This document shows positions 7,881 to 60,198 of a stretch of DNA of 64,000 nt, piece after piece. The DNA lies in assembly GCA_027459745.1 (NCBI GenBank), contig DAIDHL010000001.1, positions 168,290 through 232,289 of the forward strand. Direction: 5' to 3'. The translations under genes were made by a program, and so were the position numbers. Position 1 is the stretch's first letter. Each line of letters starts with the position of its first letter. This stretch comes from Candidatus Levyibacteriota bacterium (lineage in GTDB: Bacteria; Patescibacteriota; Microgenomatia; Levybacterales; UBA12049). The notes below the pieces were generated by a model. That model was given only the letters and a program-made list of their open reading frames with translations. It was not told where the DNA came from and did no database searches.

Positions 7881-8478
7881 GTTTATGATCTAGGTACCAA
7901 ATAACAGCCAGAACCAATAGAATAACGATGACTAGCTCTAGTTGACGAAACAAGCCGCTTAATGATTGCCACTTGGTACCCAAATAAACACCAATAAAAG
8001 TTAACAATGAACTATATATTATAGAACCAATAGCAGCATAGGTTATAAACTTCCATACATTCATTTCAAATACTCCTGCAGGAAGAGAAATAATCCAGCG
8101 TACCCCAGGTAACAATTTGCCTATCAAAACCATCTTGTCGCCGTATTTTTTAAACCAGTTAGCAGCATGTTCATACTCGCGATCACTTAGAAGTACATAT
8201 TTGCCATGCTTTTTGATTAAATTTAAAATCACTTTCTCTTCGAGAAAGAAACCAATAAAATATGGCACAAGTGAGCCTAAAACATCAGCGATTACTGCAA
8301 TAGGCACCACAATAAAATAGTTTAACTTTCCTGAAAAAACCAAAAAGCCTGAAAAGGGTAAAACTATTTCTGAAGGAATAGGAAAGACGGATGAACCAAT
8401 CGCTACTAGGGCAAAAATTCCACCATAGCCTCCCGCTTGAATAAAATGTATAATAAACCCTGATAACATCTCGAGCAT
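7849..8478 (-). CDS. DedA/TVP38 family membrane protein
   Basis: YGGIFALVAIGSSVFPIPSEIVLPFSGFL ... KYGDKMVLIGKLLPGVRWIISLPAGV is the DedA signature. Confidence 0.7.
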   Translation of the reverse strand: MLEMLSGFIIHFIQAGGYGGIFALVAIGSSVFPIPSEIVLPFSGFLVFSGKLNYFIVVPIAVIADVLGSLVPYFIGFFLEEKVILNLIKKHGKYVLLSDREYEHAANWFKKYGDKMVLIGKLLPGVRWIISLPAGVFEMNVWKFITYAAIGSIIYSSLLTFIGVYLGTKWQSLSGLFRQLELVIVILLVLAVIWYLDHKLEIRKKLFKK

Positions 8479-9189
8479 ATGGGGATATTGTACATTGTTC
8501 CAACACCAATTGGCAATCTGGAAGATATAACAATTCGCAGTTTGAATTTGTTATTTTCTGCACAATATATAGCTTGTGAAGATACCAGGAAAACCGGTCA
8601 GTTGTTAAAATTACTTAAAGAAAAGTTTTCTACTAATCCAGAAGAAAAAGTAGATCAGCCTCAACTTATTTCATATTACGAACAAAATGAATTTGTACGA
8701 ATACCTGGAATAGTGAACGTATTAAAAAACGATTTTGATGTAGTATTGGTATCCGACGCAGGAACTCCGCTGGTTTCTGATCCGGGTTTTCGTTTGGTCA
8801 AGGCGTGTTATGAAAATAATATAAAAGTGGTATCTCTTCCTGGGCCCAGTGCAGTGACTACGGCTCTAGCTGCATCCGGATTACCCTCAGATAAATTTAC
8901 TTTTCTGGGTTATCCCCCCCATAAACCAGGTCATCGAAAAACATTTTATGAGAATATTAAGCAATCAGCTGAAATTATTTCTTCTACGTTTATCATATTT
9001 GAAGCGCCACATAAGCTTCGCAAAACACTAGAAGAAATTAGCGAAACTTTAGGTGACATTGAAATCGTAATTGCGAGAGAGTTGAGCAAGGTTCATGAGG
9101 AAGTTAGTAAAAAAACTATTAGTCAATATTTATTGTATTATAAAAAACGTGAACCTAAAGGAGAGATAGTGTTACTTTTTCATATATGA
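8479..9189 (+). CDS. rsmI: 16S rRNA (cytidine1402-2'-O)-methyltransferase
   Basis: GILYIVPTPIGNLEDITIRSL..L......IACEDTRKTGQLL tetrapyrrole-methylase-fold signature of RsmI. Confidence 0.85.
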   Translation: MGILYIVPTPIGNLEDITIRSLNLLFSAQYIACEDTRKTGQLLKLLKEKFSTNPEEKVDQPQLISYYEQNEFVRIPGIVNVLKNDFDVVLVSDAGTPLVSDPGFRLVKACYENNIKVVSLPGPSAVTTALAASGLPSDKFTFLGYPPHKPGHRKTFYENIKQSAEIISSTFIIFEAPHKLRKTLEEISETLGDIEIVIARELSKVHEEVSKKTISQYLLYYKKREPKGEIVLLFHI

Positions 9190-9713
9190 CAGAAATTGAA
9201 TTAGAAAAAACTTATTTAGCAAAATATATCCCAGATGATCTGACATCATTTCCTTATGTAGATTTGGTCGATATTTATATGCCCAAAAATACTCCACATC
9301 CACATTTAAGGTTAAGAAAAAGAGGTGAGCAATATTCAATCACTCGTAAGACTCAAACGCAGGAACAAGATGCAAGTAAGCATATAGAAGAAACAATTGT
9401 TTTAACAGAAGATGAATTTGCTGCTTTATCAGTGGTCGAAGGTTTTAAAACCCACAAAGCGCGTTATAAATATAAATGGCAAGGTCAAGAGTTTGAGATT
9501 GATGTGTTTTTGGACAATTTGGCTGGCTTAGTTTTGGTTGATAAAGAATTTAATACAGAAAAAGAATTAAATAACTTTCAAATACCTGAGTTTTGTTTGG
9601 ACGACGTAACCGATGAAGAACTTCTAGCTGGGGGGATGTTAGCGGGCAAAAAATATTTAGAAATTTCTAACTTACTTGATAAATTTAATTATAAACCACT
9701 ACGCTTAGAATAA
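9186..9713 (+). CDS. CYTH-domain protein (triphosphate tunnel metalloenzyme-like)
   Basis: N-terminal EIELEKTYL (ExExK-like) and size/acidic pattern of CYTH domain. Confidence 0.45.
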   Translation: MTEIELEKTYLAKYIPDDLTSFPYVDLVDIYMPKNTPHPHLRLRKRGEQYSITRKTQTQEQDASKHIEETIVLTEDEFAALSVVEGFKTHKARYKYKWQGQEFEIDVFLDNLAGLVLVDKEFNTEKELNNFQIPEFCLDDVTDEELLAGGMLAGKKYLEISNLLDKFNYKPLRLE

Positions 9714-9716
9714 AAC

Positions 9717-10094
9717 TTATCGAGGTTTATGAGGAGAAAAAGGCATAAGATATCTTTTTTTATATCGGTCAAGTCCATTAGCAATGTCGAAAATATCAGA
9801 GTTATAAGATTCAATTATTGCTTTTGTTATGCCTACTTTGCTTAGGTATACTGTCCGTGCATCCATTTGCACATCTTCACTGTTTAACAAAAAATCTTCA
9901 ACTTTAAATAAGAAACTTTCTTCGTAATGTGGCTGATTACTTATTCTTCTTCGTAATATATCTAAAGGGACTACAGTATATGATCCGTTAATTCCGGGTT
10001 GTTTATTAATTGCATCAAATGTAATTGCGCTTTGTTTGGCATTTACAAAAAGGTTAGACCCCATAACTGTTTCATATAGATCTGGTTTTAACAT
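9717..10094 (-). CDS. hypothetical protein
   Basis: 125-aa ORF packed downstream of the acyl-CoA synthetase; no motif recognised. Confidence 0.35.
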   Translation of the reverse strand: MLKPDLYETVMGSNLFVNAKQSAITFDAINKQPGINGSYTVVPLDILRRRISNQPHYEESFLFKVEDFLLNSEDVQMDARTVYLSKVGITKAIIESYNSDIFDIANGLDRYKKRYLMPFSPHKPR

Positions 10095-10097
10095 AAT

Positions 10098-11747
10098 TTA
10101 ATAATCTTCCAAAGTTGAAATATCTCCGATTGGCTGGCCTAATTCTTTGGCACGTAAGATTCTGCGCATAATTTTACCGCTTCTGGTTTTAGGCAGACGA
10201 TCTATAAACTCTATTTCGCGAGGATATGCATGACCGGCTAAATGAGTCTTAACGAAGTCTGCTAACTCAGATTTAAGTTTTTCGGAGGCCAGTGACTCGT
10301 CTTTCAAAACTACAAAGGCTTTAATAATTTCACCACGAACAACGTCAGGTTTACCAATCACTCCTGCTTCAACCACATCTGGATGTTCAATCAACACACT
10401 TTCAACTTCGAAGGGACCAATGCGTTCTCCAGATGTTTTGATCAAATCGTCTGCCCGCCCTATAAACCAAAAATAGCCTTTCTCGTCCTTTTTGGCTTTG
10501 TCACCCGAAATATACCATTCATCTTTAAAATATGATTTATATTTCTCCTCGTCTTGCCAAATTGTTCGCATAATAGACGGCCAATAGGGTTTGAGACACA
10601 AATTGCCTTCTTCATTGACTACCACCTCTTCCATATTATCATCCATTATTTTTGCTTCTACCCAGGGCAAAGGTTTGCCCATTGATCCGGGATGAATACC
10701 TAGTGAGGGAGTATTGGCAATCATGATAGAACCAGTTTCGGTTTGCCACCAGGTATCATGAAAAAATTTACCAAATACTTTGTTACCCCAAAGGATTGCT
10801 TCAGGATTAAGTGGCTCGCCAACTGAGGCCAAAAAACGTAAACTTGATAGGTCATGTTTTTGTACTAATTCTTCACCTTTAGCCATCAACATGCGGATGG
10901 CTGTAGGAGCTGTATACCATACAGTAACTTTGTGTTTGGCAATTATTTCATACCATTTCTCAGCCTCAAATTTACCACCGTACACGACGGTGGTTATTCC
11001 CAGTGCCCAGTTGCTCAAGATGGAGTAAACAATACCGGTAATCCAGCCGGGATCAGCGGTGCACCAATATACATCATTTGGCTGCAGGTCTAAACATAAT
11101 TTGGCACTGGCAATTTGTTGAATAATTGCATAATGTGCATGTACGATGCCTTTTGGTTTTCCGGTTGTACCCGATGTATAAAGCATAAAAGCATAATCTT
11201 CAGCTTGTGTGTGGGCTGTTTCAAAACTGTCTGATTGAGACTCATATTCAGCTATAAATTCTTCGTTGTCTACAACTAATATAGAACTTAATTCGGATAA
11301 ATCATTTTTAATTTTTTCAACTCTTGGCAATAAATTTTTATTAGTGAAGACAATCTTGCTGCCTGAGTTACTCAATCTATCTTTTAGAGCTTCAGATTCA
11401 AAGGCAGAAAAATATACACTGGCAATAGCTCCAGTTTTCATGATTCCTAAGAAAATATAAAACAACTCGGGGATTCTGGGTAGAAAAATAGAGACTCGAT
11501 CTCCTTTTTTAATACCAATTTGATGTAGATAATTCGCAATTCTATTACTTTTTCTGACCAAACTGAAAAAAGTAATCTCGGTGGTCGTTCCATCTTCTGC
11601 TTCATAAATCAAAGCTGTTTTATTGCCATTGCCTTTTTCAATGTTATGATCCAAGACATTGTAGGCCATATTAAGGCTGCCGTCTTCAAACCAAACTAGC
11701 GAGTCTGGAAGGTTTTGAAAATATTCGGAAGTATATTTATTATCCAT
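10098..11747 (-). CDS. AMP-forming acyl-CoA synthetase (acetyl-CoA synthetase family, short form)
   Basis: YTSGTTGKPKG AMP-binding motif and WWQTETG motif shared with Acs. Confidence 0.8.
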   Translation of the reverse strand: MDNKYTSEYFQNLPDSLVWFEDGSLNMAYNVLDHNIEKGNGNKTALIYEAEDGTTTEITFFSLVRKSNRIANYLHQIGIKKGDRVSIFLPRIPELFYIFLGIMKTGAIASVYFSAFESEALKDRLSNSGSKIVFTNKNLLPRVEKIKNDLSELSSILVVDNEEFIAEYESQSDSFETAHTQAEDYAFMLYTSGTTGKPKGIVHAHYAIIQQIASAKLCLDLQPNDVYWCTADPGWITGIVYSILSNWALGITTVVYGGKFEAEKWYEIIAKHKVTVWYTAPTAIRMLMAKGEELVQKHDLSSLRFLASVGEPLNPEAILWGNKVFGKFFHDTWWQTETGSIMIANTPSLGIHPGSMGKPLPWVEAKIMDDNMEEVVVNEEGNLCLKPYWPSIMRTIWQDEEKYKSYFKDEWYISGDKAKKDEKGYFWFIGRADDLIKTSGERIGPFEVESVLIEHPDVVEAGVIGKPDVVRGEIIKAFVVLKDESLASEKLKSELADFVKTHLAGHAYPREIEFIDRLPKTRSGKIMRRILRAKELGQPIGDISTLEDY

Positions 11748-33992: not shown

Positions 33993-34213
33993 TCAGGAAA
34001 AATATCTGATGCTTTCACCTTTAATGCCTTAATCACTCTATAGATGTTCTGGAAGGTTGTATTGATCTCTCCCCGTTCAATTTTTGCGTAATAATTACCT
34101 TTCATGCCAATCGCCTTAGCCACTTCCTCTTGAGTAAAGTTACCATTTACTCTTGCGTGACGTATCTTTTCGCCGAATTCTTTTTGAGCTTTATGATTAA
34201 CCTTGGTTGCCAT
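33989..34213 (-). CDS. XRE-family HTH transcriptional regulator
   Basis: FGEKIRHARVNGNFTQEEVAKAIGMKGNYYAKIERGE helix-turn-helix. Confidence 0.8.
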   Translation of the reverse strand: MATKVNHKAQKEFGEKIRHARVNGNFTQEEVAKAIGMKGNYYAKIERGEINTTFQNIYRVIKALKVKASDIFPD

Positions 34214-34695: not shown

Positions 34696-37131
34696 CTAAA
34701 AAATTTCAGATATTTTTTTTGCTGATTGAAGTAGCTCATATTTTGTATATCGTGGACTTTGTAGATTAATTCTGGGATTGTCTAAATGTATTGGGTTAAT
34801 TTGATAGATATCAGACAAAAATAGTTTAAATTTGCCGGTTTTCTCGTAAGGTTCTATGTTCTTAATTTTACCCATCCATCTTATTACTTTATTTGGTGCT
34901 ACTTCATATAATGCAAGATATTTGAGCTTCTTTTTTGCCTCGGGAGATAGTTTAACTGCCCACCAGGCATGCTGTTCAATAAATGCTCGGCTAAGACCGT
35001 CATTTTTTGTTGCGCAAATGATAGTATCATAATCTTTATCTATAGATTTAGCTACCCTAAAAACCTTCTTTTCAGGAATATGATCTTTTTGTACAATCTC
35101 AACTGGTTGTTTTGATTTTTCTAGTCTAGAGAATATTCTATCAAACCATTCGATCGCAGATTCCCCGTCTTTTCTAATCAACGGATCGCTATCTTTTGCA
35201 TGAGCTATATCATTACGATATTCCCTTAAATCAGTAAGCCTTTTTTGTAATTCTTCCTTAGAGCCGAAAATTGCTTCAAATAGATTCCAGTTTTTTAGTA
35301 TAATCTTTTGATAATCTCCCACATCACAATAATTCAGATAATCTCTTGTAGAAAAGTCAGTAAGATTTTTATATGGATTACGCTTAAGCTCTGAAGCTAT
35401 TTTAATACTTACATTAACCTTAGTATCCTCAGGTATAGATGTATTCCAATAACCTTGATTTACTGATAATGCTGTTTGTATTGTATCTCTTAGTCTTACC
35501 TCAATCATATCTATCGCTTTTTTAGGATCATTTGATAGTAGCTGCATAATTCTGCCTCCAGTTACTTTTTTAAATTCTTCAAAAATATAATTGGCTCGTT
35601 CTAGGATGAATTGTTCATATCGATTATTTTCAACTGCTTGGCTATAAGGAATCATTTGCACTTTTAGTGTTTCTCCAAAATTTGGATTTTCCTTGCTATA
35701 AGTACTAAAATAATCGCTAGGCGCTTGTTTGGAAATCTCTTTATTAAGTTCTGCAGGGATGAAACAGAAGTTAGCGATTGAGTATTCACTATACTTTATA
35801 CCTTTTGATCTTGATTTTAGGAATTCTTTAGGAAATATATGATGTCTCTCAGCAAGGTTTATGCTTGCACATATGGAATCATCTAAAATAATATTATTAT
35901 TGTTTTTAAAATGCTTGGGACTTTTGCTGGCTAAAAGACAAAAGAAAACATTTCTAAGTGAGGATTTCGTTGTTATTTTTGTTTCGATAATTTCTTCTGG
36001 GGTAAGCGTAATTGGATAGTTAATTTCTACGTTGTCCTTTCCTTCAATAAAGCTGTCAAATATATCTTTTCGATCTTCCCACATGTGTGTATCACGTTGA
36101 CTACCGTATCTTTCGCTTAAGGAAGCTTTCCAAAACCATTCCTGAACTTTTTTGGTTACATTTTGGTTGAATGATGCTTTTGGATATTTATAATAAAGAT
36201 ATATAAGAAGAGAGAGAATTGCAGGGTATGGTAAAAATTCATATGTTTTTACTCCTAAATTTGCAGTAAGATGATCCACAGCTTTTTCTACAGATTGGCA
36301 TACTTTAGGCCATGCTGATTTAATCTCTTCTTTTTTAAGTTCAAATAAATATTTTTGGTTACAATATCCTTTAATAATTAACGCAATAGCTAATAATACT
36401 GGTTCTATTGGAATTTCTCCAAAAGATTTTTTGTCATTTATACTCTTACTTAAGGCCTCATACTTCTCTCGTATGTCAAAATCATCTCCCCACGTACTTG
36501 CGACAACGAGGTCAAAAACTGATAGTTTTTTGCCTCCTTGATTAATTCTTTCAAATATTTCAATCGCATCAGCGAGTTCTTTCTCTTTTACGCTAATTAC
36601 AGATAAAGGGTAATTAGCAAAAATTCCAGTCAGTTTTTGAAATATCTTTTTTCTTTCATCAGTCAAGTTCTTAAATATTTCTAAGGATGTTTCCTGACTA
36701 AAGATATCTCTTACAGAAGCAAAATGATTATCTTTTGTCTCTTCCTCGAAAAAAACCTCATCATCAAAATTAAAGCAGATATTACCATAATTAATGGTAT
36801 CTACTGTTAATCCATTAAACGTAACAAATAAAGCAGTCGCTCTTTGTTGTCCATCAAGAATGTATCTCAAATCTGAGTGGCCGTCTGGTTTTGGTAAATT
36901 TAATTCAGGGAAATCCTTATAAAAAAGATTATATTGTCTATCTGCGTCCCAAACAAAAAAACTTCCTATTGGATACTCTCTATATATTGAGTCTAGCAAG
37001 TCAATAATTTTTTTACGTCCCCACACGAATTTTCTCTGAAAACGCGGTATGCGGAGTGTTCCATTTGATATATCGTAAAGAAGATTAGATAATTTGTAAT
37101 TTGATTTTATTTCAATCTTAGATATTTCCAT
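34696..37131 (-). CDS. GmrSD-like nuclease: DUF262 (ParB-like) + DUF1524 (HNH/His-Me) + C-terminal HEPN-like RNx3H domain + unknown C-terminal module
   Basis: RIPRFQRKFVW...YPIGSFF...LDGQQRATAL (DUF262); ERHHIFPKEFL...NFCFIPAELNK (DUF1524); EYRNDIAHAKD (Rx4H); final 150 aa unassigned. Confidence 0.7.
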   Translation of the reverse strand: MEISKIEIKSNYKLSNLLYDISNGTLRIPRFQRKFVWGRKKIIDLLDSIYREYPIGSFFVWDADRQYNLFYKDFPELNLPKPDGHSDLRYILDGQQRATALFVTFNGLTVDTINYGNICFNFDDEVFFEEETKDNHFASVRDIFSQETSLEIFKNLTDERKKIFQKLTGIFANYPLSVISVKEKELADAIEIFERINQGGKKLSVFDLVVASTWGDDFDIREKYEALSKSINDKKSFGEIPIEPVLLAIALIIKGYCNQKYLFELKKEEIKSAWPKVCQSVEKAVDHLTANLGVKTYEFLPYPAILSLLIYLYYKYPKASFNQNVTKKVQEWFWKASLSERYGSQRDTHMWEDRKDIFDSFIEGKDNVEINYPITLTPEEIIETKITTKSSLRNVFFCLLASKSPKHFKNNNNIILDDSICASINLAERHHIFPKEFLKSRSKGIKYSEYSIANFCFIPAELNKEISKQAPSDYFSTYSKENPNFGETLKVQMIPYSQAVENNRYEQFILERANYIFEEFKKVTGGRIMQLLSNDPKKAIDMIEVRLRDTIQTALSVNQGYWNTSIPEDTKVNVSIKIASELKRNPYKNLTDFSTRDYLNYCDVGDYQKIILKNWNLFEAIFGSKEELQKRLTDLREYRNDIAHAKDSDPLIRKDGESAIEWFDRIFSRLEKSKQPVEIVQKDHIPEKKVFRVAKSIDKDYDTIICATKNDGLSRAFIEQHAWWAVKLSPEAKKKLKYLALYEVAPNKVIRWMGKIKNIEPYEKTGKFKLFLSDIYQINPIHLDNPRINLQSPRYTKYELLQSAKKISEIF

Positions 37132-37178
37132 ATTTGGATTATATCAAACACAACAACAAGTAAACAGCTTTAGAACAT

Positions 37179-38203: not shown

Positions 38204-38482
38204 ATGATTGACAATTCAGAAAAGAAATCTCGACAATTTAATCTAAATTATTTTCCTCAGTCATCCATTTTTGCTAACTCACTAAATGAAATGTTCCCAG
38301 AACAGCAACATGAAGATAAAACTGTCAAGAAAGCAAGAGAAGTTCTAGGAGAAAATTATACTTTAGAACAAACAAAAGAGCTGATGGCTTCTTATGAGTT
38401 TATTATTCAAAAGTGGCTGGAAGAATATGAGAAAAGCATTTTTAACAATAAAACATTAAAAGAGCTACTTCAAAAAAATTAA
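38204..38482 (+). CDS. hypothetical protein co-transcribed with the serine recombinase (possible accessory/RDF)
   Basis: 92-aa ORF ending 2 nt before the recombinase start. Confidence 0.4.
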   Translation: MIDNSEKKSRQFNLNYFPQSSIFANSLNEMFPEQQHEDKTVKKAREVLGENYTLEQTKELMASYEFIIQKWLEEYEKSIFNNKTLKELLQKN

Positions 38483-38483
38483 T

Positions 38484-40016
38484 ATGGCTGGAGCTGAACT
38501 AACTAAACAAGCAATTATTTACATCCGAGTCTCAAGCGAAGAACAGGTTGAAAATTTTTCATTGGATACACAAGATGATATTTGCAGAAAAGAAGCAACT
38601 AGGCGAGGTTTTCAAATAATTGAAATCTTTCGGGAAGAAGGAAAGTCTGCAAAAACTATAACGGGCAGACCAGAGTTGATGAAGCTATTAGATTATTGTC
38701 GAAGAAACCGCAGACATGTTGATGCAGTATTTGTATACAGACTTGATCGTATATCTCGACAAACATCTGACTACTTAGCTATTCGAAAACGCTTGGCAGA
38801 TTATGGCATTTCCTTAATTTCAGCTAATGAACCTACTGGAAACTCCCCAACAGAGAAATTATTGGAAACAATTATTGCCAGTTTTGCTCAACATGATAAT
38901 GATGTTCGTTCAGAACGAACAAAAAATGGCTTACGCACAAGATTTCTTGCTGGTATGTGCACGGGCAAAGTGCCAATAGGATACGTTATGGAAGGCGGTT
39001 ATGCAGTAAAAGATAAAAATTTTGAAAATATGAAGAAAGCTTGGAATCTTATGGCAACAGGAACAAAGAGTCTTTCAGAAATGGCTGCGATTATGAATGA
39101 ATGGGGAATACGAAAAGTTGTTGCTGGTAAAGAGCATAAACTACGAATGCAAACAGTCGGTAGATTATTTAGACATAAATTTTATATGGGTGTTCTGACC
39201 TCTACAAAATATCCAGAAGAGATTCGAGGACAACATGAGGCAATGGTAACGGAAGAGCAATTTTATAAAGTACAAGCAATTATAGATGGCAGGAATGTCA
39301 GTGGGATGACTATTGGTAAGCGACTCAATGAGAACCCAGATTTTCCTTTACGACGAGTAATTAAATGTGGAAAATGTGGAGGAGTTTTATCCGGCGCTTG
39401 GAGTAAGGGGAGATCAAAACGATATGCTTACTATATCTGTAAAAACCGTTGTGGTGCTCCATCTATTGCTGTTAAAAAATTGGACGACTCACTCATACAA
39501 TACTTCCAAGATATTACGCCTACTAAAGATCAACTAGATGTATTTCTGATTGTGTTAAGAAAAATGTTTTATCAAAGCCTATCGGGGCTTCAAGCAAAAC
39601 GAGTGATAGCTCAAGAAGAAATATATAAGCTAAAACAAATGAGACAAAAGCTTGTAGAAAAAAATTTGGCAGGGGTCTATTCAGATGAGATATTTAAAGA
39701 GCAAAGGGTTATTATTGAAGACAAAATTGCTACTGCTGAAAGTATTTTAGGACAGACAATTTTTGATAAATACAATTTTGATGATGTCGAGAAATTTATG
39801 CGTGCAAAATTTAAGGATCTCGGTCAAACTTACATAGATTCTGAGCCTGGGGTTCGTCGTGTGCTGCTTGGTTCGATATGTCCCGCTGGGTTGGCATGGT
39901 CATATTCTGGCTTATCGAATCGCGAGTTTAACAAGCAATATCAGGCTATTCTTGATATAGGAAGTGGTAATTTTGCAATGAGTACCCCATCTGGGACGAT
40001 GTTCGTACCTATCTAG
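38484..40016 (+). CDS. large serine recombinase (resolvase/invertase N-domain + recombinase domain + zinc ribbon)
   Basis: AIIYIRVSSEEQ catalytic Ser motif, ...VYRLDRISR; CGKCGG...C zinc ribbon; 510 aa. Confidence 0.85.
   Translation: MAGAELTKQAIIYIRVSSEEQVENFSLDTQDDICRKEATRRGFQIIEIFREEGKSAKTITGRPELMKLLDYCRRNRRHVDAVFVYRLDRISRQTSDYLAIRKRLADYGISLISANEPTGNSPTEKLLETIIASFAQHDNDVRSERTKNGLRTRFLAGMCTGKVPIGYVMEGGYAVKDKNFENMKKAWNLMATGTKSLSEMAAIMNEWGIRKVVAGKEHKLRMQTVGRLFRHKFYMGVLTSTKYPEEIRGQHEAMVTEEQFYKVQAIIDGRNVSGMTIGKRLNENPDFPLRRVIKCGKCGGVLSGAWSKGRSKRYAYYICKNRCGAPSIAVKKLDDSLIQYFQDITPTKDQLDVFLIVLRKMFYQSLSGLQAKRVIAQEEIYKLKQMRQKLVEKNLAGVYSDEIFKEQRVIIEDKIATAESILGQTIFDKYNFDDVEKFMRAKFKDLGQTYIDSEPGVRRVLLGSICPAGLAWSYSGLSNREFNKQYQAILDIGSGNFAMSTPSGTMFVPI
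39820..39987 (+). repeat. direct repeat copy B (inside the 3' end of the serine recombinase gene)
   Basis: See copy A. Confidence 0.9.
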
Positions 40017-40086: not shown

Positions 40087-40578
40087 ATGTTAGATTTCTG
40101 GAAACGAAAACAAACAAAGGTTGTTTCAGTTTTGCTTACCTCAATTCTACATGATGAAACAACATTTTATCAAGCATTCTTAAAAGATTTACAAGCTGCA
40201 AAAAGAGAGGTCATCATTGAGAGTCCGTATATTACGAGTTATCGAATGCGGATGCTTTACCCAATCTTTGCAAAATTACTTCATCGAGGGATAAAAGTAT
40301 TTATCATAACTCGTCCTCCACAAGAGCATGACAGCGAAAAGATGCGTGCACAAGCAGAGATAGAAATTCGTCGCTTTGAACAAATTGGCATTCAAGCACT
40401 CCTTTGTGTTGGTAGTCATCATAGAAAGCTTGCAATGATTGATCGGAATATTTTATGGGAAGGTAGCTTAAATATTCTCTCTCAGTCATACAGTCGGGAA
40501 TATATGCGAAGAATTGCCAGTCACCAAATCACACAGGATACCTTTATATTTTTAAAATTTGATAAGATTATTTATTGA
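40087..40578 (+). CDS. PLD-family (single HKD) nuclease, Nuc-like
   Basis: GSHHRKLAMIDRNILWEGSLN contains HxKx4D; 163 aa as in plasmid Nuc endonucleases; strong RBS AAGGAGG. Confidence 0.7.
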   Translation: MLDFWKRKQTKVVSVLLTSILHDETTFYQAFLKDLQAAKREVIIESPYITSYRMRMLYPIFAKLLHRGIKVFIITRPPQEHDSEKMRAQAEIEIRRFEQIGIQALLCVGSHHRKLAMIDRNILWEGSLNILSQSYSREYMRRIASHQITQDTFIFLKFDKIIY

Positions 40579-40640
40579 GAGTATAAAAATTGTAGTTTAT
40601 GTTTGCGAAAACAGAAAATATGTGGTAGAAAGGAGGTACT

Positions 40641-40877
40641 ATGGACGATAAAAATGTTGCTATTGAAAAATTTGGACTGGTTATTGATGCATTAACGTAT
40701 GCACATGAGAATAATCTGGATATTAACAGCAAGGAAGATGTTAAAAAAATATTACTTGCACTTGAGCATGATCAGGTAAATGATGAGGAAGTTGACGAGT
40801 TTATGCTTTTGCTTCAAGCAGGGAATATGTTTATAGAAAAAGATGCCCAAAAGCGAAAAACATCAATGCTTAATTGA
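40641..40877 (+). CDS. small acidic hypothetical protein
   Basis: 78-aa D/E-rich ORF with RBS GGAGG. Confidence 0.4.
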   Translation: MDDKNVAIEKFGLVIDALTYAHENNLDINSKEDVKKILLALEHDQVNDEEVDEFMLLLQAGNMFIEKDAQKRKTSMLN

Positions 40878-40889
40878 CATAAACGTGCC

Positions 40890-41201
40890 CTACGAGTACT
40901 TCATCCCAAAAGAAGCATCCGACATGAGAAGGTAAATAATCCCTTCGAAAAAACCAATGATGCCTGGAATACCTGTCCAGCAGAAAAACAGATAAATAAC
41001 TCCTTGAATTGGTCTGCCTAAATAGAATTTATGGATACCAATGTCACCTAGAAATATAGCAAGCAAAGCAGCAGTAATTCTGCTTTTCGTTGTTCTCATT
41101 TCCATTTGCGAAGTGAGATTAGTACGCACTTGTCGTCTGTATGCTTCTTCCTCTTCAATTTTCTTTTTTTCTGCTTCAGTGAGTGCCATAAGTGGCAACA
41201 C
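40890..41201 (-). CDS. TM2 domain protein
   Basis: LAIFLGDIGIHKFYLGRPIQGVIYLFFCWTGIPGIIGFFEGIIYL is the TM2 two-helix signature. Confidence 0.65.
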   Translation of the reverse strand: MLPLMALTEAEKKKIEEEEAYRRQVRTNLTSQMEMRTTKSRITAALLAIFLGDIGIHKFYLGRPIQGVIYLFFCWTGIPGIIGFFEGIIYLLMSDASFGMKYS

Positions 41202-41297
41202 TATATCAAATTGTTGAGCTTATTGCTAGATGCTAGAGATACTGGGAGTTAGCAACTTCCGCTTTGGTGGCACGAGCTCTTCTGCTATAATTCAGCC

Positions 41298-42305
41298 ATG
41301 GCAGATAGTATTCCAGTCAACAAATATATAGGGTATTTACGCTATACAGGAGATTTAGTATCGGATGGCATACTCGATGCAAAACAAGCATCAGATGCAC
41401 TTCGTGGTTTTGACGAGATTTTAAGATTTTTTATAACTCGAGAAAATTCTCAGTTACAAACAGTACCTTTTGAGATTCCTGTATTAATACAAAAAGGTAG
41501 TTGGGAAGCTGTCATTCCGGAGATAGTTAGTAAGATATTGAGTCCAACAGGTATCGCTGAAGCAACTAGTGCAACATATTTAACTGTTAGCGCTAAAAAA
41601 GCTGCAACCGATGGTTTTCTTGAGACAGGAGCTGCGAAAGATATAGCAAAAACATTTAAAGCGGGAATAAGGAGTGCTCAGTGGGTTATTAAAATTGCCA
41701 CGCATCTAAAATCGATTTCACGTAAGGATTTGAATCCGAAAATCATTCGGGACGGAAAGGAAATATTTATCGAAATACCAAATGAAGATGGCAAAACGTT
41801 CATTGTGCCTAAAAAATATTATGATCTCTTTATGATATCGCCGGTAAAATTATTTTCTAATCCAGTTCGTCTTGTTGAAAAAGGTAGAATATTCGAATTA
41901 GGAGTATACGACAACGGAAAGGAAGAAAAAGTAACTATATCCGAAGATGAAAAAGGAATATTTTATTCTGGAGAGGAAGAAGAAGTCCTATTTCCTGAAT
42001 TAAAACACGGCCAATCAGTTGAACTTGAAGGTACTATAACAAAAGGCAATGAAAAATCCAATACGATAGGATTCGAATATTTAGGTCATATATTAACTGC
42101 AAAGCCAGCAGAAGGTAGTATTGTTAACTATAAAAATAGAATAGTTTCCTCTAGTGAAGACCATATTTTCCCACGAGTCAAAATTTCAGGCGTTATCGAT
42201 AGAGCTTATGATTTAAAAGAAGGTGAATTACAAAAAAAACGTCCAATGATAGTTTTTATAAAAATAACTCCGATAGATATCCAAAACGAACAACAGCATA
42301 TTTAA
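41298..42305 (+). CDS. hypothetical protein (335 aa, soluble, no recognised domain)
   Basis: ORF with TTGGTG-16-TATAAT promoter-like upstream; no motif recognised. Confidence 0.45.
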   Translation: MADSIPVNKYIGYLRYTGDLVSDGILDAKQASDALRGFDEILRFFITRENSQLQTVPFEIPVLIQKGSWEAVIPEIVSKILSPTGIAEATSATYLTVSAKKAATDGFLETGAAKDIAKTFKAGIRSAQWVIKIATHLKSISRKDLNPKIIRDGKEIFIEIPNEDGKTFIVPKKYYDLFMISPVKLFSNPVRLVEKGRIFELGVYDNGKEEKVTISEDEKGIFYSGEEEEVLFPELKHGQSVELEGTITKGNEKSNTIGFEYLGHILTAKPAEGSIVNYKNRIVSSSEDHIFPRVKISGVIDRAYDLKEGELQKKRPMIVFIKITPIDIQNEQQHI

Positions 42306-42314
42306 CCTGTTCGT

Positions 42315-42926
42315 TTAAGGATCACCTTGTAAAAACGTCCTCGGATTCACAGGAATCCCATACACATTTATTTGGAAATGGACATGCGGCCCCGTTGCAT
42401 TCCCCGTTTCTCCTTCATACCCAATAACATCACCTGTATCAACAGTTGCTCCCACTTTCGTATTCAGTGCTTCCATGTGTCCATAAAGACTCGTGACATG
42501 ATCACCGTTGTCTATAATCACATGTATACCATACCCCGAGTTATCCTCTCCTGCATAAATCACCGTGCCTTTCGCGAATGGATGAATCGGGTCACCTTGT
42601 TCTCCGTTTGGGTCTGCAATATCAATGCCCGTATGCAGAATTTGGTACGGCGGATCCGGTTGTCCAAACTCCAATGTTACGACTCCCTGCATCGGCCACG
42701 CCATTGCAGCAGTGAAATCTGTAATAGTTCCATCAAGATTATGAATCTCAACCGTATTTGTCTTTGTATCAAGAGTAACGAGTTTATCCGATACAGATTG
42801 AAAACCGAAGCTGGTTATTACGATGATGCCAATAAGCGGAAGCAGGAGAATAAAGAGGAACATACCGGCAACAATTTTTAATTCATTGCGAAAGGAGAAA
42901 AGGGTAAAAGCAGCAAAAGGTAGCAT
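42315..42926 (-). CDS. M23 family (LytM) peptidase with N-terminal TM, likely T4SS-associated cell-wall hydrolase
   Basis: HTGIDIA...GTVIYAG...GYGIHVIIDNGDHVTSLYGHM...GETGNATGPHVHFQI. Confidence 0.8.
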   Translation of the reverse strand: MLPFAAFTLFSFRNELKIVAGMFLFILLLPLIGIIVITSFGFQSVSDKLVTLDTKTNTVEIHNLDGTITDFTAAMAWPMQGVVTLEFGQPDPPYQILHTGIDIADPNGEQGDPIHPFAKGTVIYAGEDNSGYGIHVIIDNGDHVTSLYGHMEALNTKVGATVDTGDVIGYEGETGNATGPHVHFQINVYGIPVNPRTFLQGDP

Positions 42927-42929
42927 TGG

Positions 42930-44762
42930 TTAGAGATATATCTCCTTTGGATCTGTTGTCAGCAACGGATGTTCTTTTTCGCTTGCGACTACTTTGACAG
43001 CCACATGATTTTGGTCGGCAATAATCAGTGCCTCGCCTCTATCGCAGGTAAGGAGGAATTGTTGTTCATATTCACTTAAATGAAATTCTTCAGTCACTTT
43101 TTTTATTGTGGTTGTGTCCTGACGCATCAGAATGCGCAAAGAGGACTGTGACGCAATCGCTCGTCCATAATCTTGTCTGAGAAAATCTTGGGCTTGCTGG
43201 GAGATAATTGTAACACCAAGATAATATTTTCTGGCGCGCCGAACCAATCCAGCGATAAATCGTGCACTTTCTTCATGTTCAAGTAACATCCATCCTTCAT
43301 CAATGACGAGAAGGCGTTTCTGCGGATGAGACTTCACTTGAGCATCAACAAAGTTTGCAATCACCACCATCATAATTTGCCGTATGGATTCATGCAGGTC
43401 TTTAATATCAAAAATAACCAATCGGTTATCAAGCTGAATATTGGTTTGTTCATTAAAAACGTTTGCGAGTGAACCTTTGACAAACCGCTCGAGCCGATGA
43501 CAAATATCTTTTTGTTTCATAACTCGAAGTGTCTGGTATAAATCCTCAATAAGTGGGAAATCTTCTTTGGCTTTTCCTTTTTTCTTCTCACTCATGGTAT
43601 ATCCAAAGTTTTTGTATGTTTGTAATATTGCCTTATCCATCACGGCTCGTTCTTCAGGTGATAAACTCCCAACCATTAACGAAATAATTTCAGTGAGATT
43701 TTGGATGTGTTCTGCCAGGGCATTGTCGCCAGTAAATGACACAGTTGAAAAATCAAACGGATTTATCTTTTCTTTACTGGAACTGGATAATTTGATGAAT
43801 GTTCCTTTCACAGATTTTGCCAGTTGTTTATATTCTCCCTCGGGGTCAATGACAATCACTTTCGTCCCCTGCATGAGATGACGAAGGATTTCTACTTTTG
43901 TGGTATAACTTTTCCCACTGCCAGATTGAGCAAAGATTATAGAGTTTGCGTTATTAAGAGAGAAACGATCAACAATAACGAGTGAGTTATTTGATTTATT
44001 TATCCCATACAAAATACCTGACTCTTGAACGAGTTCTGAAGAAACAAACGGAAACGTAAGTGCTGCACTGGAACTATCTAGGTTTCGTCTCTGCATCAAT
44101 ATATTTTCCCCTCGCGGCAAAATAGATTGAATTCCTTCAAGCTGTTGAAACGTTGCAGTTTTGATGTAGAACAAACGACTGGACATAACTGTTTCAAGAA
44201 TTTTAGTGATTTTATTCAACTCCGCTAACGAATCGGCGGTGATTGCCATGTAAATAGAAATTTGAAATAGTTTCTCTTTGCCGCGTTGAATGTTATCTTT
44301 CAACTGAATTGCAGAATCTAATGGGTCAGTGATTTCAGATCCAACAATTCTACCGTTTTTAATCATTGCCCGTTTTGTTGCTTCAAGTTCGGTGATCTTG
44401 CGGTTTAATTTTGGCAAAGCCAGTAGGGGATCAACTTGTTCAATATGGTATGAGATATCTATGTTGTAATTGAAGTTGATCAGCATGTTCAGCCAGCCAG
44501 TACCTGCAACATACGGATAGCCTGAGATAAAAAGTGTACGAATATATGTATCACCCATTTGAATGTATGATGAACTTTCTTCAAGTCCTGAGTACGACAG
44601 GAGATCAATTTGGTCTTGCTCGCCAAAATTAAATTGGAAGGACTTCTTGAGCAACTCCTTCTTCTTGTTTTTTCGTTTTAGCTTCTTACGCAATTGCTTT
44701 GCAAGTTTTTGCATATCAACTGTGGGTAATTTTTGTAATGGTAGTTGGGATAAGTTAAACAT
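42930..44762 (-). CDS. VirB4-family conjugation ATPase, C-terminal 610-aa portion
   Basis: Walker A IFAQSGSGKSYTTK, Walker B RLLVIDEGW; starts with ATG overlapping the stop of the upstream ORF by 8 nt. Confidence 0.8.
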   Translation of the reverse strand: MFNLSQLPLQKLPTVDMQKLAKQLRKKLKRKNKKKELLKKSFQFNFGEQDQIDLLSYSGLEESSSYIQMGDTYIRTLFISGYPYVAGTGWLNMLINFNYNIDISYHIEQVDPLLALPKLNRKITELEATKRAMIKNGRIVGSEITDPLDSAIQLKDNIQRGKEKLFQISIYMAITADSLAELNKITKILETVMSSRLFYIKTATFQQLEGIQSILPRGENILMQRRNLDSSSAALTFPFVSSELVQESGILYGINKSNNSLVIVDRFSLNNANSIIFAQSGSGKSYTTKVEILRHLMQGTKVIVIDPEGEYKQLAKSVKGTFIKLSSSSKEKINPFDFSTVSFTGDNALAEHIQNLTEIISLMVGSLSPEERAVMDKAILQTYKNFGYTMSEKKKGKAKEDFPLIEDLYQTLRVMKQKDICHRLERFVKGSLANVFNEQTNIQLDNRLVIFDIKDLHESIRQIMMVVIANFVDAQVKSHPQKRLLVIDEGWMLLEHEESARFIAGLVRRARKYYLGVTIISQQAQDFLRQDYGRAIASQSSLRILMRQDTTTIKKVTEEFHLSEYEQQFLLTCDRGEALIIADQNHVAVKVVASEKEHPLLTTDPKEIYL

Positions 44763-45348
44763 AGGTATTTGCTAAGAGCATATCAATTGTTTGACCTTTC
44801 AATGCCTGTGTTTTGATTTGAGATGGATTGTAAAAGGAATAAAAAAGATCGAGTAATTCAAGACTTGTTACTTGTCGTGCTTTCATCCCTAATTTTTCTA
44901 TTCCTTTACTCACAATATCTCGTTGCAAGTGAAGATGCTCTTTGACTGTTGCAAAATCGTTCTGTTTTCCGATGTGACGATAAGGAATAACGACGTAAAA
45001 TCGGCGGGAAAGAATTTTATTGCCGGACACCATTTGTTTGATAAAGGAACAATAGGTATCAATTTGCTCTTTGTACATTGTTTCTTTCTCCTGTAATTTT
45101 TTGGCTTTAATCTGTTCCACATAGGAATCAATATCAACTTCACGAACTCTGATTAGCATTTGCAAAGGACAAGGCAATGAGTTTAAAAAGTTTTGAAAGC
45201 TATCAATCAGCACATCTTGCTCTTCCTCACTTTTTAATTCAAAATTAATACTCGATGTTTCAAGCACCAAACGATATTCATTATTTGGTAATACTAAGAT
45301 ATTATCCTTTACTTCTTTAATCTGAATTTGTCGGCGGCTGCTCGCCAT
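44755..45348 (-). pseudogene. VirB4 N-terminal (CagE/TrbE/VirB-type) domain as a separate 197-216-aa ORF, so split or frameshifted virB4
   Basis: YRLVLETSSINFELKSEEEQDVLIDSFQNFLNSLP...RRFYVVIPY aligns to the first 200 aa of VirB4 proteins; combined length 826 aa equals intact VirB4. Confidence 0.5.
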
Positions 45349-45349
45349 C

Positions 45350-45865
45350 TTATTTGATTTGTTCAAGACCAACATCGAGTCCTCCTTTCTTATTTGTTTT
45401 GACAAAAAATGTAAACGCAGGATTTTGCAATACAGTTTCCAGTCGTATCATGTCTGCCCCTTCTAATACGGGAACTACCGTTTTCTCTTTGGCGGTTGAC
45501 CTCATCTTCTTAAAAATTTTGAATGGTTTCTTTTCAATTTTCGGCAGATACATCTCACGTAAGTAGGTCTCATTTTTATTCAGCACATACCATCTTGGTC
45601 GAAGATTATATCGAAGTAAAATACCTGCCCAATTCAAGACAACCTTTCCTTTTATCCGCAGCGAAAGAGTGACACAAATGATCGCAACAATAAACGCGAT
45701 AACAATTTTTATCACACTCACATGGAGTTTCGGTGGAAGAAGAATAAATTCGACTGTTGTCCAGAAGACAGGAACCATTAATAAAAGAAGTTGTGTCAGA
45801 TTTAAACTCCCTGCAATTCGGTCTTCAACTGTCGTAATTTGAGCTGGAATCACTCTTGTTCTCAT
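45350..45865 (-). CDS. small two-TM membrane protein, VirB3-like (putative)
   Basis: Position immediately upstream of virB4, hydrophobic hairpin LLLLMVPVFWTTVEFILL...VIKIVIAFIVAIICV. Confidence 0.35.
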   Translation of the reverse strand: MRTRVIPAQITTVEDRIAGSLNLTQLLLLMVPVFWTTVEFILLPPKLHVSVIKIVIAFIVAIICVTLSLRIKGKVVLNWAGILLRYNLRPRWYVLNKNETYLREMYLPKIEKKPFKIFKKMRSTAKEKTVVPVLEGADMIRLETVLQNPAFTFFVKTNKKGGLDVGLEQIK

Positions 45866-47157
45866 GCGTTGATATACCTCCGTTTTAGTTTCGCTTCAGC
45901 ATTGTCATCTTCGGTATACCCAGCGTTTGACCCCTCTTGTTTGTGTGTCGTCATCGTGTTGACCATCTGACTTCCCATATGAATAAGAGCGCTCAGTCGG
46001 GATGTATAAAACATCATTTGAAACATCCAGGTAGGAATTCGCAGAAGTGTCAAGAAAAGCCCGATTGCAATAACTATTGAAAGAAGAGAACTATCGGGAT
46101 TATCTGGCAACGCGAGGAAAGAGGACGCAAGTTGAATCACAACGACATGAACAAAGATCATGAAAACAGTGACAACGTATCCTTTGACCGCTGCTTCGGC
46201 GAAATCTGAGGTTTTCGGTATTGCCCACATCAGAAATATGAAAGGAGAAAGCACACCGGCAAGGGCAACAAGAATGAGGCGGACGATGTACATAAATAAC
46301 AATATGATGGCCACAATGAGAAAGATAACGAAAAAGATAAGCGTAATTAATTTTGTATTGCCTGTTAAGAGACTCACGGGATTAATTGCATTGACCACCC
46401 ATGCATGATCCAACCCTCCGGTTGTATTAATAACTTCCTTGACAAGAGCATTACATGTTGTGATGACGTAATCACAAAGAAACAAAGAGACATTCGCACC
46501 AAGGAAGGATAATCCAATTCTCGGCAATAAATGTTTGAGTTCTATTTCCTCAAACCCAAAGGTTGATGCAGACATGAAATGTAATCCAAGTAGTGCAACA
46601 ACGACAACAAAGAGTGAATCAACAATTCCTAGACTAATTGCCCAGAAATGAAAGACAACAGAATTTGTGAGAAGACTTGGTGTCGTGGTGAGATAGCTAA
46701 TGATTGCATTCACAATAGGTTGTGTAGCGCTTTGTACTACATCCTGCAATAAGCCAATGACGGCGTTAATAAGGACTTGCGCGACTCCATCGTTGGGTGT
46801 TTGCGTAGCAAGTGGTGAGAGCGTAAGTGCTTGCGTTGTGGTACTTGCAGTGGGGCTAAGTAATGCGCCTTGCAGAAGGGAGATAACAACATTTGCTCCA
46901 AGAACAAGAGCTAATCCGATGACGGCATTTCTGATCGTTTTCTTGGCGTTTTCTAACGCTTCCGGATGACCGGTTGAGGTCATGTAGTGATAGCCGCCTT
47001 TGATTAAAAAAAATGCCGCCGAAGCGGACGCGAGAAGAGTAATCAGTTGCAACGTATCATTCGTGTAGTTGCTCATATCCGTTCCTACTGCAAACACAGG
47101 AGGAACGACCATAAGATATGTAATAGCTCCGAAAAGAGCATAGAAAGTCTTTTTCAT
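45862..47157 (-). CDS. polytopic membrane protein: N-terminal VirB2/TrbC-like pilin domain fused to VirB6/TrbL-like domain
   Basis: Signal peptide MKKTFYALFGAITYLMVVPPVFA; GGYHYMTSTGHPEALENAKKTIRNAVIGLALVLGANVV paralogous to the adjacent pilin-like gene; more than 6 further TM segments; start moved to MKK at 47157 (RBS GGAG). Confidence 0.55.
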   Translation of the reverse strand: MKKTFYALFGAITYLMVVPPVFAVGTDMSNYTNDTLQLITLLASASAAFFLIKGGYHYMTSTGHPEALENAKKTIRNAVIGLALVLGANVVISLLQGALLSPTASTTTQALTLSPLATQTPNDGVAQVLINAVIGLLQDVVQSATQPIVNAIISYLTTTPSLLTNSVVFHFWAISLGIVDSLFVVVVALLGLHFMSASTFGFEEIELKHLLPRIGLSFLGANVSLFLCDYVITTCNALVKEVINTTGGLDHAWVVNAINPVSLLTGNTKLITLIFFVIFLIVAIILLFMYIVRLILVALAGVLSPFIFLMWAIPKTSDFAEAAVKGYVVTVFMIFVHVVVIQLASSFLALPDNPDSSLLSIVIAIGLFLTLLRIPTWMFQMMFYTSRLSALIHMGSQMVNTMTTHKQEGSNAGYTEDDNAEAKLKRRYINA

Positions 47158-47170
47158 ACTATAAATACTC

Positions 47171-47512
47171 CTACTGAGCAGCCTGTGCTGTACCAAAGGC
47201 AGTCGTTGCAAGATCTGAAACGATGTGCGAGAGTACAAATGCACCAAGCACAACAGCTAAACCAACAGCTGAGTACATAATTGTTTTTTTTGATCGATCG
47301 AGCTGTTCAGGATTTCCTGAACTTGTAATGTAGCCAATTCCTCCCATGACGAAGAACCCGACTGAGATAGCAGCTGCAAGAGAAACGAGTACTTGCACAA
47401 TACTTTGAATAAATGTCTGAATTTTTGTGACATCTGCAGAAGCTGCAAAGGCTGGAGTTACAACGATAAGAGAAGTTATTAGAACTGCTTGTAGGTAGAT
47501 AATTTTTCTCAT
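47171..47512 (-). CDS. VirB2/TrbC-like conjugative pilin
   Basis: Signal peptide, then GGIGYITSSGNPEQLDRSKKTIMYSAVGLAVVLGAFVL two-helix pilin architecture. Confidence 0.6.
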   Translation of the reverse strand: MRKIIYLQAVLITSLIVVTPAFAASADVTKIQTFIQSIVQVLVSLAAAISVGFFVMGGIGYITSSGNPEQLDRSKKTIMYSAVGLAVVLGAFVLSHIVSDLATTAFGTAQAAQ

Positions 47513-59970: not shown

Positions 59971-60198
59971 TCAGAAGGGAATCAAGTCTTTTATCTTCAC
60001 TCCCAAAACTTGCGAAATCTTATACATCGTCTCAAAGGCAGGGAAGTTATATCCTGCTTCAATATATGCAATAGACGTTAAGGCTAATCCCGCTCTTTCT
60101 GCAAGCTGTTCTTGGGTTAACCCTTTCTCTTTTCTCAACTTCTGAATATGTCTTCCCAACGTTTGCCGCATATTATTTAGTTTAGTATCATTACTCAT
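59971..60198 (-). CDS. XRE-family HTH regulator
   Basis: LRKEKGLTQEQLAERAGLALTSIAYIEAG; C-terminus similar to the XRE at 33989-34213. Confidence 0.8.
   Translation of the reverse strand: MSNDTKLNNMRQTLGRHIQKLRKEKGLTQEQLAERAGLALTSIAYIEAGYNFPAFETMYKISQVLGVKIKDLIPF

Follow-up and report, generated by a model that had tools for sequence, protein, structure and literature searches.

This analysis concerns a 64,000-nucleotide stretch of a Candidatus Levyibacteriota genome (GenBank assembly GCA_027459745.1, contig DAIDHL010000001.1, positions 168,290 to 232,289 of the forward strand), called the window below, and in particular four open reading frames (ORFs) within it that encode a PLD-family nuclease, a 78-amino acid (aa) acidic protein, a TM2-domain membrane protein and a 335-aa protein. 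All four ORFs were located where the original prediction, made from the sequence alone, had placed them, right after a large serine recombinase gene that does lie directly upstream of the nuclease gene; on the other side, the interval is bordered by a Patescibacterial type IV secretion system (T4SS) operon. That prediction had also treated the four genes as a functional cluster at the edge of an integrative conjugative element (ICE). Comparison with related loci shows instead that the four-gene interval is a mosaic of at least three separate units and no operon, and that the 335-aa gene is a standalone accessory gene, moving horizontally and settling among defense genes. From this placement, we infer that the 335-aa protein is most likely a standalone, host-side defense protein of an abortive infection-like kind.

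The 335-aa protein had been presented as an orphan with no recognizable motifs and as a good candidate for an undescribed function. The family is indeed uncharacterized, as no match to the protein was found in Pfam, NCBIfam or PADLOC. However, the protein matches phrog_32975 end to end (E 5e-58) and is neither motif-free nor an orphan, with 268 homologs in a collection clustered at 90% identity; in a set of 1.84 billion proteins, the family has 303 representatives at 50% identity. The length of full-length members is uniform, at about 310-350 aa, and none of them carries a domain fusion. The family alignment has a mean column identity of 47% with 21 invariant positions. The distribution is patchy: in species-representative genomes, the family was detected in Patescibacteria, Bacteroidota, Gamma- and Betaproteobacteria and Planctomycetota, as well as in Verrucomicrobiota, Lentisphaerota, Elusimicrobiota and a Eubacteriales genome, and one homolog comes from a genome named at its source as Hodarchaeota (archaeal). 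No member was found in 50,697 phage records or in 2.9 million viral contigs, and only two of 72,556 plasmid records contained one, both being Vibrio replicons larger than 1 Mb without annotation. This near absence from plasmids and absence from viruses indicates that the family is host-side and not virus-borne.

Among eight homolog contexts annotated with Pfam, a plain count gives five defense or candidate-defense islands and three contexts with integrase, relaxase or terminase genes. The first group comprises an SLFN-like helicase with RadC and Mrr-nSTAND3 (L001), a Type ISP restriction-modification (R-M) enzyme directly upstream of the family gene together with SocA/Panacea (L003), DUF6615 with DUF3800 and PIN7 (L008), an MmeI-type R-M enzyme with NERD and PDDEXK (L010), and a Type I R-M system with HepT/MNT, PIN, Dcm-Vsr and SIR2-HerA (L153). 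The second comprises a tyrosine-integrase islet in Alistipes (L004-L007), an integrative element with ArdC, SSB (which binds single-stranded DNA) and a relaxase, in which the family gene directly follows a large serine recombinase (L011), and a prophage remnant (L154). R-M subunits were also the most frequent families among 114 immediate neighbors in 57 genomes. When all neighbors within 6 kb were clustered, the 61 loci yielded no conserved neighbor, and no family recurred in more than four of them. The co-occurrence with PLD nucleases that a functional cluster would entail was not observed in either direction: tblastn detected no relatives of the PLD, TM2 or 78-aa proteins near family members in 68 homolog loci, and the 335-aa gene was found in none of 83 other PLD loci. 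The original prediction had named broadly chromosomal homologs, without linkage to nucleases or mobile elements, as what would refute it; linkage to PLD nucleases is indeed lacking, but the homologs do reside in defense islands or integrative elements.

The AlphaFold2 (AF2) model of the 335-aa protein (pLDDT 80, pTM 0.63) begins with an alpha/beta domain at the N-terminus, continues through a glycine-, alanine- and threonine-rich segment of low confidence and a long helix (aa 112-137), and ends in two beta domains (Table 1); it contains the arrangement that defines an oligonucleotide/oligosaccharide-binding (OB) fold, namely a five-stranded barrel with a helix between strands b3 and b4. The OB-like reading of the middle domain also draws on weak Foldseek matches to tandem-OB proteins (HIN-200, Taq SSB). 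Neither Pfam nor NCBIfam places the sequence in a described OB family (SSB, tRNA_anti, RPA), and the protein thus differs from OB-fold binders such as SSB, RPA, PriB and the anticodon domain of aminoacyl-tRNA synthetases in lying outside their sequence families, with no Pfam match. It differs from tandem-OB sensors of the HIN-200/AIM2 type in that the TM-scores are low (0.26-0.31) and its two barrels are mutually dissimilar in sequence. The N-terminal domain combined with the hydrophobic segment sets it apart from both groups. An origin of the two beta domains by duplication was rejected, as hhalign gave a probability of 0.2% and no sequence similarity. Nor is the protein a clear membrane protein: the Kyte-Doolittle maximum over 19 residues is 0.99, and values above 1.6 occur in only 3 of 33 homologs, the maximum lying at about aa 66-95 in most homologs and ranging from 0.9 to 1.9. 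The only profile match in the PDB, IceA2 (7xfp), was not significant (E 0.04, with a repetitive beta-rich alignment), and the single-stranded DNA (ssDNA)-activated defense protein DARNA, which is composed of a HEPN and a helical domain, is unrelated.

Table 1. Features of the four-gene interval and its surroundings, with positions counted from the first nucleotide of the window
Feature	Position	Strand	Family, domain or basis	Remark
XRE-type HTH homologs	34013-34192 and 59995-60168	both -		First one just left of GmrSD gene
GmrSD_N + HEPN defense-type protein	34696-37131	-	PF03235 (E 1.5e-30); PADLOC PDC-M55C, HEC-05	Left of recombinase
Replic_Relax-like protein, 259 aa	37179-37958	-	25.1 bits vs cutoff 25.3	
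92-aa ORF	38204-38482	+	No family match	Paired with serine recombinase
Large serine recombinase	38484-40016	+	Resolvase, Recombinase, Zn_ribbon_recom domains	Left border, directly upstream of PLD
PLD nuclease, 163 aa (predicted)	40087-40578	+	PF13091 PLDc_2	
78-aa helical PLD partner	40641-40877	+	Positional homologs and iterated HMM	
TM2-domain small membrane protein, 103 aa	40890-41201	-	PF05154	
Promoter-like site	41264-41291	+	Read from sequence	
335-aa protein	41298-42305	+	Uncharacterized family	Candidate single-gene defense
N-terminal alpha/beta domain, aa 1-75	41298-41522	+	No structural match	Invariant G18, G24, D27, L35, D39, P61, W69
Low-confidence Gly/Ala/Thr-rich segment, aa 79-112	41532-41633	+	pLDDT <50	Moderately hydrophobic
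Middle beta domain, aa 148-214	41739-41939	+	Secondary-structure order	OB-like topology b1-b2-b3-a-b4-b5
C-terminal OB fold, aa 240-325	42015-42272	+	Predicted structure	
Patescibacterial T4SS operon	42315-47253	-	M23 peptidase, VirB4-like ATPase, TraC-like, PrgI-like, pilin/VirB6-like	Right border of slot

The 335-aa gene had been credited with its own promoter, and the stated elements do exist, with TTGGTG at 41264-41269 separated by 16 nt from TATAAT at 41286-41291. The -10 hexamer is perfect, is preceded by TG (TGCTATAAT, an extended -10) and ends 6 nt before the ATG. The -35 hexamer is weak, agreeing with the consensus at three of six positions, and the site was not listed by a consensus scan. 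The AT-rich stretch contains no more sites of this kind than shuffled sequence does (7 found, 9.1 expected); the promoter is plausible, though not statistically supported. The start has no Shine-Dalgarno sequence, which together with the closeness of the -10 hexamer to the ATG suggests that the transcript is probably leaderless. With a GC content at third codon positions (GC3) of 0.22, the gene lies below the T4SS genes (0.34-0.42). The same extended -10 and leaderless geometry was noted for the gene encoding the GmrSD_N and HEPN protein (TGATATAAT, 6 nt, ATG; upstream at about 37132-37150), and no gene in the region has a lower GC3 than these two (about 0.22). Elsewhere in the family, a Shine-Dalgarno-like sequence precedes only 10 of 42 genes (L012-L068), and hexamers resembling a -10 element stand near the ATG in several copies from Patescibacteria; this may reflect no more than a translation habit of Bacteroidota and Patescibacteria.

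Of the PLD loci, 27 include 5 kb or more of sequence downstream. The PLD gene and its small partner face the M23/VirB4 end of a T4SS operon in 10 of these, always in the same orientation and across a gap of 0.25-5 kb, and the T4SS genes have the same order, at 50-78% identity, in five loci (L072, L077, L111, L126 and L146). The contents of the gap vary. One locus (L102) carries a CBASS cyclase (E 2.7e-114) with TRIP13 (E 3e-115), others a reverse transcriptase of defense or retron type (L088), AbiEii (L111, E 2.9e-50) or PDC-M36A (L126), and further contents include several proteins of no assigned family. These findings agree with the expectation of the original prediction that defense genes accumulate at this position. 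The CBASS genes of L102 occupy positions 7865-10311 between the PLD pair and the T4SS and resemble type III (cyclase, 196-aa protein, TRIP13); the contig is presumed to be Patescibacterial from its synteny with the T4SS operon of the window. TM2 genes recur in or near the slot, following the PLD-partner genes in L078, L079 and L110 and lying beside the M23 gene in L126. In the nearest syntenic locus (L072, VirB4 78% identical), the 335-aa gene is missing, and an unrelated gene of 211 aa stands between the PLD-partner pair and M23, while the slot of the window holds the TM2 and 335-aa genes. Variation extends to the left side, where the window has the 92-aa ORF, serine recombinase, Replic_Relax-like and GmrSD-HEPN genes and L072 has a HEPN_AbiV protein.

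In the arrangement we propose, the PLD cassette would often mark one side of a variable slot and the M23 gene at the tail of the T4SS operon the other, with the slot carrying proven kinds of antiviral system in what appear to be sister genomes and TM2 as a recurrent occupant. The hotspots of P2 and P4 (PMC9122126) likewise have conserved flanks around a slot that switches between unrelated defense systems; here, one flank is a PLD cassette and the other the tail of a Patescibacterial T4SS operon, which is chromosomal. This arrangement is not mentioned in a study of Patescibacterial T4SS (PMC12102498), nor do its supplementary tables mention PLDc, TM2, M23 or Resolvase.

The identification of the PLD protein as a single-HKD nuclease of Nuc type is well supported. 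PLDc_2 (PF13091) was matched at E 8.9e-12 (45.4 bits, gathering cutoff 27), and one full HxK(x)4D(x)6GSxN motif (H112, K114, D119, G126-S127, N129) is invariant in 25 homologs. The AF2 model (pLDDT 88) has as its closest folds in Foldseek NucT (6ehi, 5.8e-9, TM 0.63), Zucchini (4ggk, 8.6e-9) and Nuc (1byr, 1.9e-7), with PLD3 as a further neighbor, so that all of the closest folds (NucT, Zucchini/MitoPLD, Nuc, PLD3) are nucleases; by sequence, MitoPLD is the sole solved relative. Inspection of N-termini revealed no signal peptide and no h-region, and the N-termini vary, some homologs beginning at the first beta strand of the fold, which argues that a signal peptide is absent. The protein is therefore a predicted cytoplasmic nuclease. 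It adds a new member to an enzyme class that is already known. In PADLOC, it matched the C-terminal PLD domain of MkoC (E 3.7e-14), MkoB (4.4e-6) and DrmC (1.5e-4). This likeness to Mokosh and DISARM is limited to the nuclease domain, and as no Mokosh helicase or DISARM partner genes lie nearby, the PLD gene of the window stands outside those systems.

The protein shares its size of about 160 aa, its single motif and its fold with Nuc (pKM101/R46), NucT (Helicobacter pylori) and Zucchini/MitoPLD (4ggj/4ggk). The gene for Nuc lies on a conjugative plasmid of the IncN group, the ComB T4SS serves H. pylori in DNA uptake, and both Nuc and NucT are exported. In contrast to these two enzymes, the PLD protein of the window has no signal peptide, is followed by a small partner and usually, in its relatives, by a convergent XRE gene, and belongs to a very large clade in which activity is predicted from sequence. 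This clade comprises more than 3000 homologs (clusters at 90% identity) that are 55-65% identical, and those named at their source are mostly Patescibacteria (Saccharimonadales, Microgenomates, Daviesbacteria, Woykebacteria).

The 78-aa protein had been described as strongly acidic and possibly a DNA mimic. It is acidic (pI 4.5, net charge -8), but moderately so, and its gene has a strong Shine-Dalgarno sequence (AGGAGG). A word-indexed homolog search returned the query alone, and no significant match was found in Pfam, PHROG, NCBIfam or PDB. An orphan status was nevertheless overturned by positional homologs and an iterated hidden Markov model (HMM): three PLD homolog loci each have a 78-79-aa ORF directly downstream that is 28-36% identical to that of the window, and the iterated HMM, applied to 80 metagenome PLD loci, detected the partner in 52 of the 73 Patescibacterial loci with room for such a gene. 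Identity within the subtype of the window is 46-53%, and in homolog loci the PLD and partner genes overlap or are closely spaced. The two genes are thus a conserved two-gene cassette in Patescibacteria. A gene of about 70 aa encoding an XRE-type helix-turn-helix (HTH) protein (motif INVNYYA.IERGE) follows the pair directly and convergently in 43 of 59 loci; it is absent after the pair in the window, which has two homologs elsewhere (Table 1). The 53 members of the partner family are helical by composition, with a median net charge of -2 (range -10 to +9) and a median pI of 5.5, and many have lysine-rich tails.

That the partner is a DNA-mimicking anti-restriction protein, similar to Ocr or ArdA, would fit the pI, charge, small size and probably helical nature of the window copy. 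Acidity is not conserved across the family, which argues against mimicry, as do the frequent lysine-rich tails, the tie to the PLD gene (rather than to leading regions) in 52 of 73 loci and the lack of a relative in Pfam or PDB, and we consider this function very improbable. From the gene order and the unequal conservation of the two proteins, we infer instead that the partner regulates or inhibits its cognate nuclease. As in the nuclease-inhibitor pairs colicin E DNase/Im and barnase/barstar and in VirE2 with its T4SS chaperone VirE1, a small protein (acidic here) is encoded right after the nuclease gene or overlapping it. In the present pair, the PLD protein is highly conserved and the partner fast-evolving. 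The partner is unrelated to colicin Im, barstar and VirE1 in sequence and structure, and its acidity is not conserved.

Alternatively, the PLD protein and its partner may form a module linked to the T4SS, with the nuclease secreted or acting at the secretion system in DNA processing or in the salvage of host nucleotides; we regard this as unlikely, though worth keeping in view, and a matching role of the small acidic partner as chaperone or immunity factor, like VirE1 or colicin Im, as equally so. The constant orientation of the pair toward the T4SS operon in 10 of the 27 long loci and the position of the partner gene immediately downstream favor such a link. To our knowledge, no secretion signal is known for the Patescibacterial T4SS, which counts against it, as do the absence of a signal peptide, the variable N-termini and the partner acidity that is not conserved. 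Furthermore, 17 of the 27 long loci have no T4SS within 6 kb, and the pair and XRE gene there lie near R-M or HATPase/HNH genes. In favor of the link, NucT, one of the three closest folds, has been implicated in natural transformation and purine salvage in H. pylori (PMC5714352), and the PLD type of the window often adjoins a T4SS. The pair may be a regulated nuclease-inhibitor cassette or a T4SS-linked nuclease like Nuc and NucT.

The ICE label for the region is not established. A large serine recombinase and a mating-pair-formation T4SS (VirB4-like, TraC-like, PrgI-like, pilin, M23) are present, the latter of the chromosomal Patescibacterial type. Such systems are broadly ubiquitous in Patescibacteria and chromosomal, most of their clusters have no relaxase, and from this the authors inferred that they were probably co-opted for functions other than conjugation (PMC12102498). 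A scan of the ORFs from 34 to 48 kb of the window found no type IV coupling protein, and the Replic_Relax match of the 259-aa protein falls just under the cutoff, with a match to the PHROG annotation "replication initiation by nicking" at E 1.5e-7. This protein could be a divergent relaxase, or a Rep protein belonging to a small integrative element. An insertion of the 335-aa gene marked by flanking repeats was considered and rejected, as the local matches are short and at chance level.

Taken as a whole, the explanation that combines the PLD cassette, the variable defense slot and the 335-aa protein as a standalone defense protein is one that we consider about evenly poised between right and wrong. 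Under it, foreign nucleic acid, for example ssDNA or RNA, would be bound through the OB domain or domains of the 335-aa protein, and the effector step might be carried out by the conserved N-terminal or hydrophobic part after oligomerization, or by sequestering a replication intermediate, both of these being guesses. Several points weigh against this explanation. No PADLOC model matches the 335-aa, 78-aa or TM2 protein, the defense role being drawn from context, and location is a weak argument where only one gene is concerned; some homologs adjoin housekeeping genes (EPSP synthase, DAHP synthase, aminotransferases). The 335-aa protein has no recognizable enzymatic or pore-forming domain, which leaves the effector step to guesswork, its hydrophobic segment rarely reaches transmembrane hydropathy, and OB folds also serve roles other than nucleic acid binding, with Potempin A among the fold matches. 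With regard to the slot, the majority of long PLD loci lack a nearby T4SS, as given above, and the sister loci are unbinned metagenome contigs whose Patescibacterial assignment follows from protein identity and synteny. The evidence for the partner as an inhibitor consists of gene order and unequal conservation. A bolder version, in which the 335-aa protein would be the first bacterial immune protein built on tandem OB barrels with no recognizable enzyme domain, strikes us as very doubtful. It would oligomerize on foreign single-stranded or damaged nucleic acid in the manner of HIN-200/AIM2, cell death or arrest would follow through the N-terminal domain and the Gly/Ala-rich hydrophobic segment, and a leaderless transcript would make expression independent of Shine-Dalgarno recognition.

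The main rival for the 335-aa protein is an establishment or anti-defense factor of mobile elements, similar to SSB, that would coat or protect incoming ssDNA and, like leading-region genes, would have early expression driven by a promoter of its own. The OB fold or folds would suit such a role, as would the strong, probably leaderless start and the proximity of the window gene to a recombinase and a T4SS. In the integrative element with SSB and ArdC, the family gene (L011/L046) lies between the large serine recombinase and NikA/relaxase, and a further member (L012) also adjoins a serine recombinase. The distribution of the family speaks against this role, however, given its absence from phages and viral contigs and its occurrence in only the two large Vibrio replicons among plasmids. 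Most contexts are chromosomal R-M or defense islands with no transfer genes, and Patescibacterial T4SS clusters are mostly relaxase-less, with a non-conjugation role inferred by the authors (PMC12102498). We therefore hold an establishment factor to be quite unlikely. That the PLD, 78-aa, TM2 and 335-aa genes form one multi-gene defense or anti-restriction system, as their adjacency beside the recombinase could suggest, is scarcely credible: the genes are not all on one strand, the 335-aa family was in no case found together with the other three and has no conserved neighbor, and the nearest syntenic locus has the unrelated 211-aa gene in place of the 335-aa gene.

As far as we could find, the PLD-partner-XRE triad, the defense slot on the side of the T4SS and the 335-aa family are undescribed. 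If the 335-aa family does act in defense, it would be a compact single-protein system with an OB-fold sensor, with a range that takes in Patescibacteria, Bacteroidota, Proteobacteria and Planctomycetes, and the gene is small enough for direct testing. A fixed cargo slot between PLD and T4SS genes would help to locate defense genes in Patescibacteria, which are mostly uncultured. The triad accounts for more than 3000 clusters at 90% identity, and its identity between several lineages of Patescibacteria is about 60%. Its repeated occurrence next to the T4SS raises the question, open to testing, of a link between nucleases of the Nuc/NucT type and the T4SS machinery.

Finally, several smaller observations were made on the neighboring genes. 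The pair of 92-aa ORF and serine recombinase recurs beside PLD genes in L145 (positions 1002-2671, 41-44% identity) and L127 (4453-6155, 54%), upstream of the PLD gene in the former and downstream in the latter, and PLD cassettes may be a preferred neighborhood or target of the large serine recombinase. A single 753-kb contig (Ga0172379_10000002) has two PLD copies: one (L080/L070) with a small partner beside XRE, HATPase_c_3 and HNH genes, and another (L126) beside a T4SS, for which no partner but only the convergent XRE gene was detected. The TM2 membrane protein had been correctly recognized on the opposite strand, with a match to PF05154 at E 1.8e-18 (66.9 bits, cutoff 27.9) and to phrog_10680 at E 1.3e-30. 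Its true start is probably the ATG at 41189 (MALTEAEKKK...), in agreement with the 99-aa homolog beside M23 in L126; no Shine-Dalgarno sequence precedes this start, and TATAGT is found 10 nt upstream of it.

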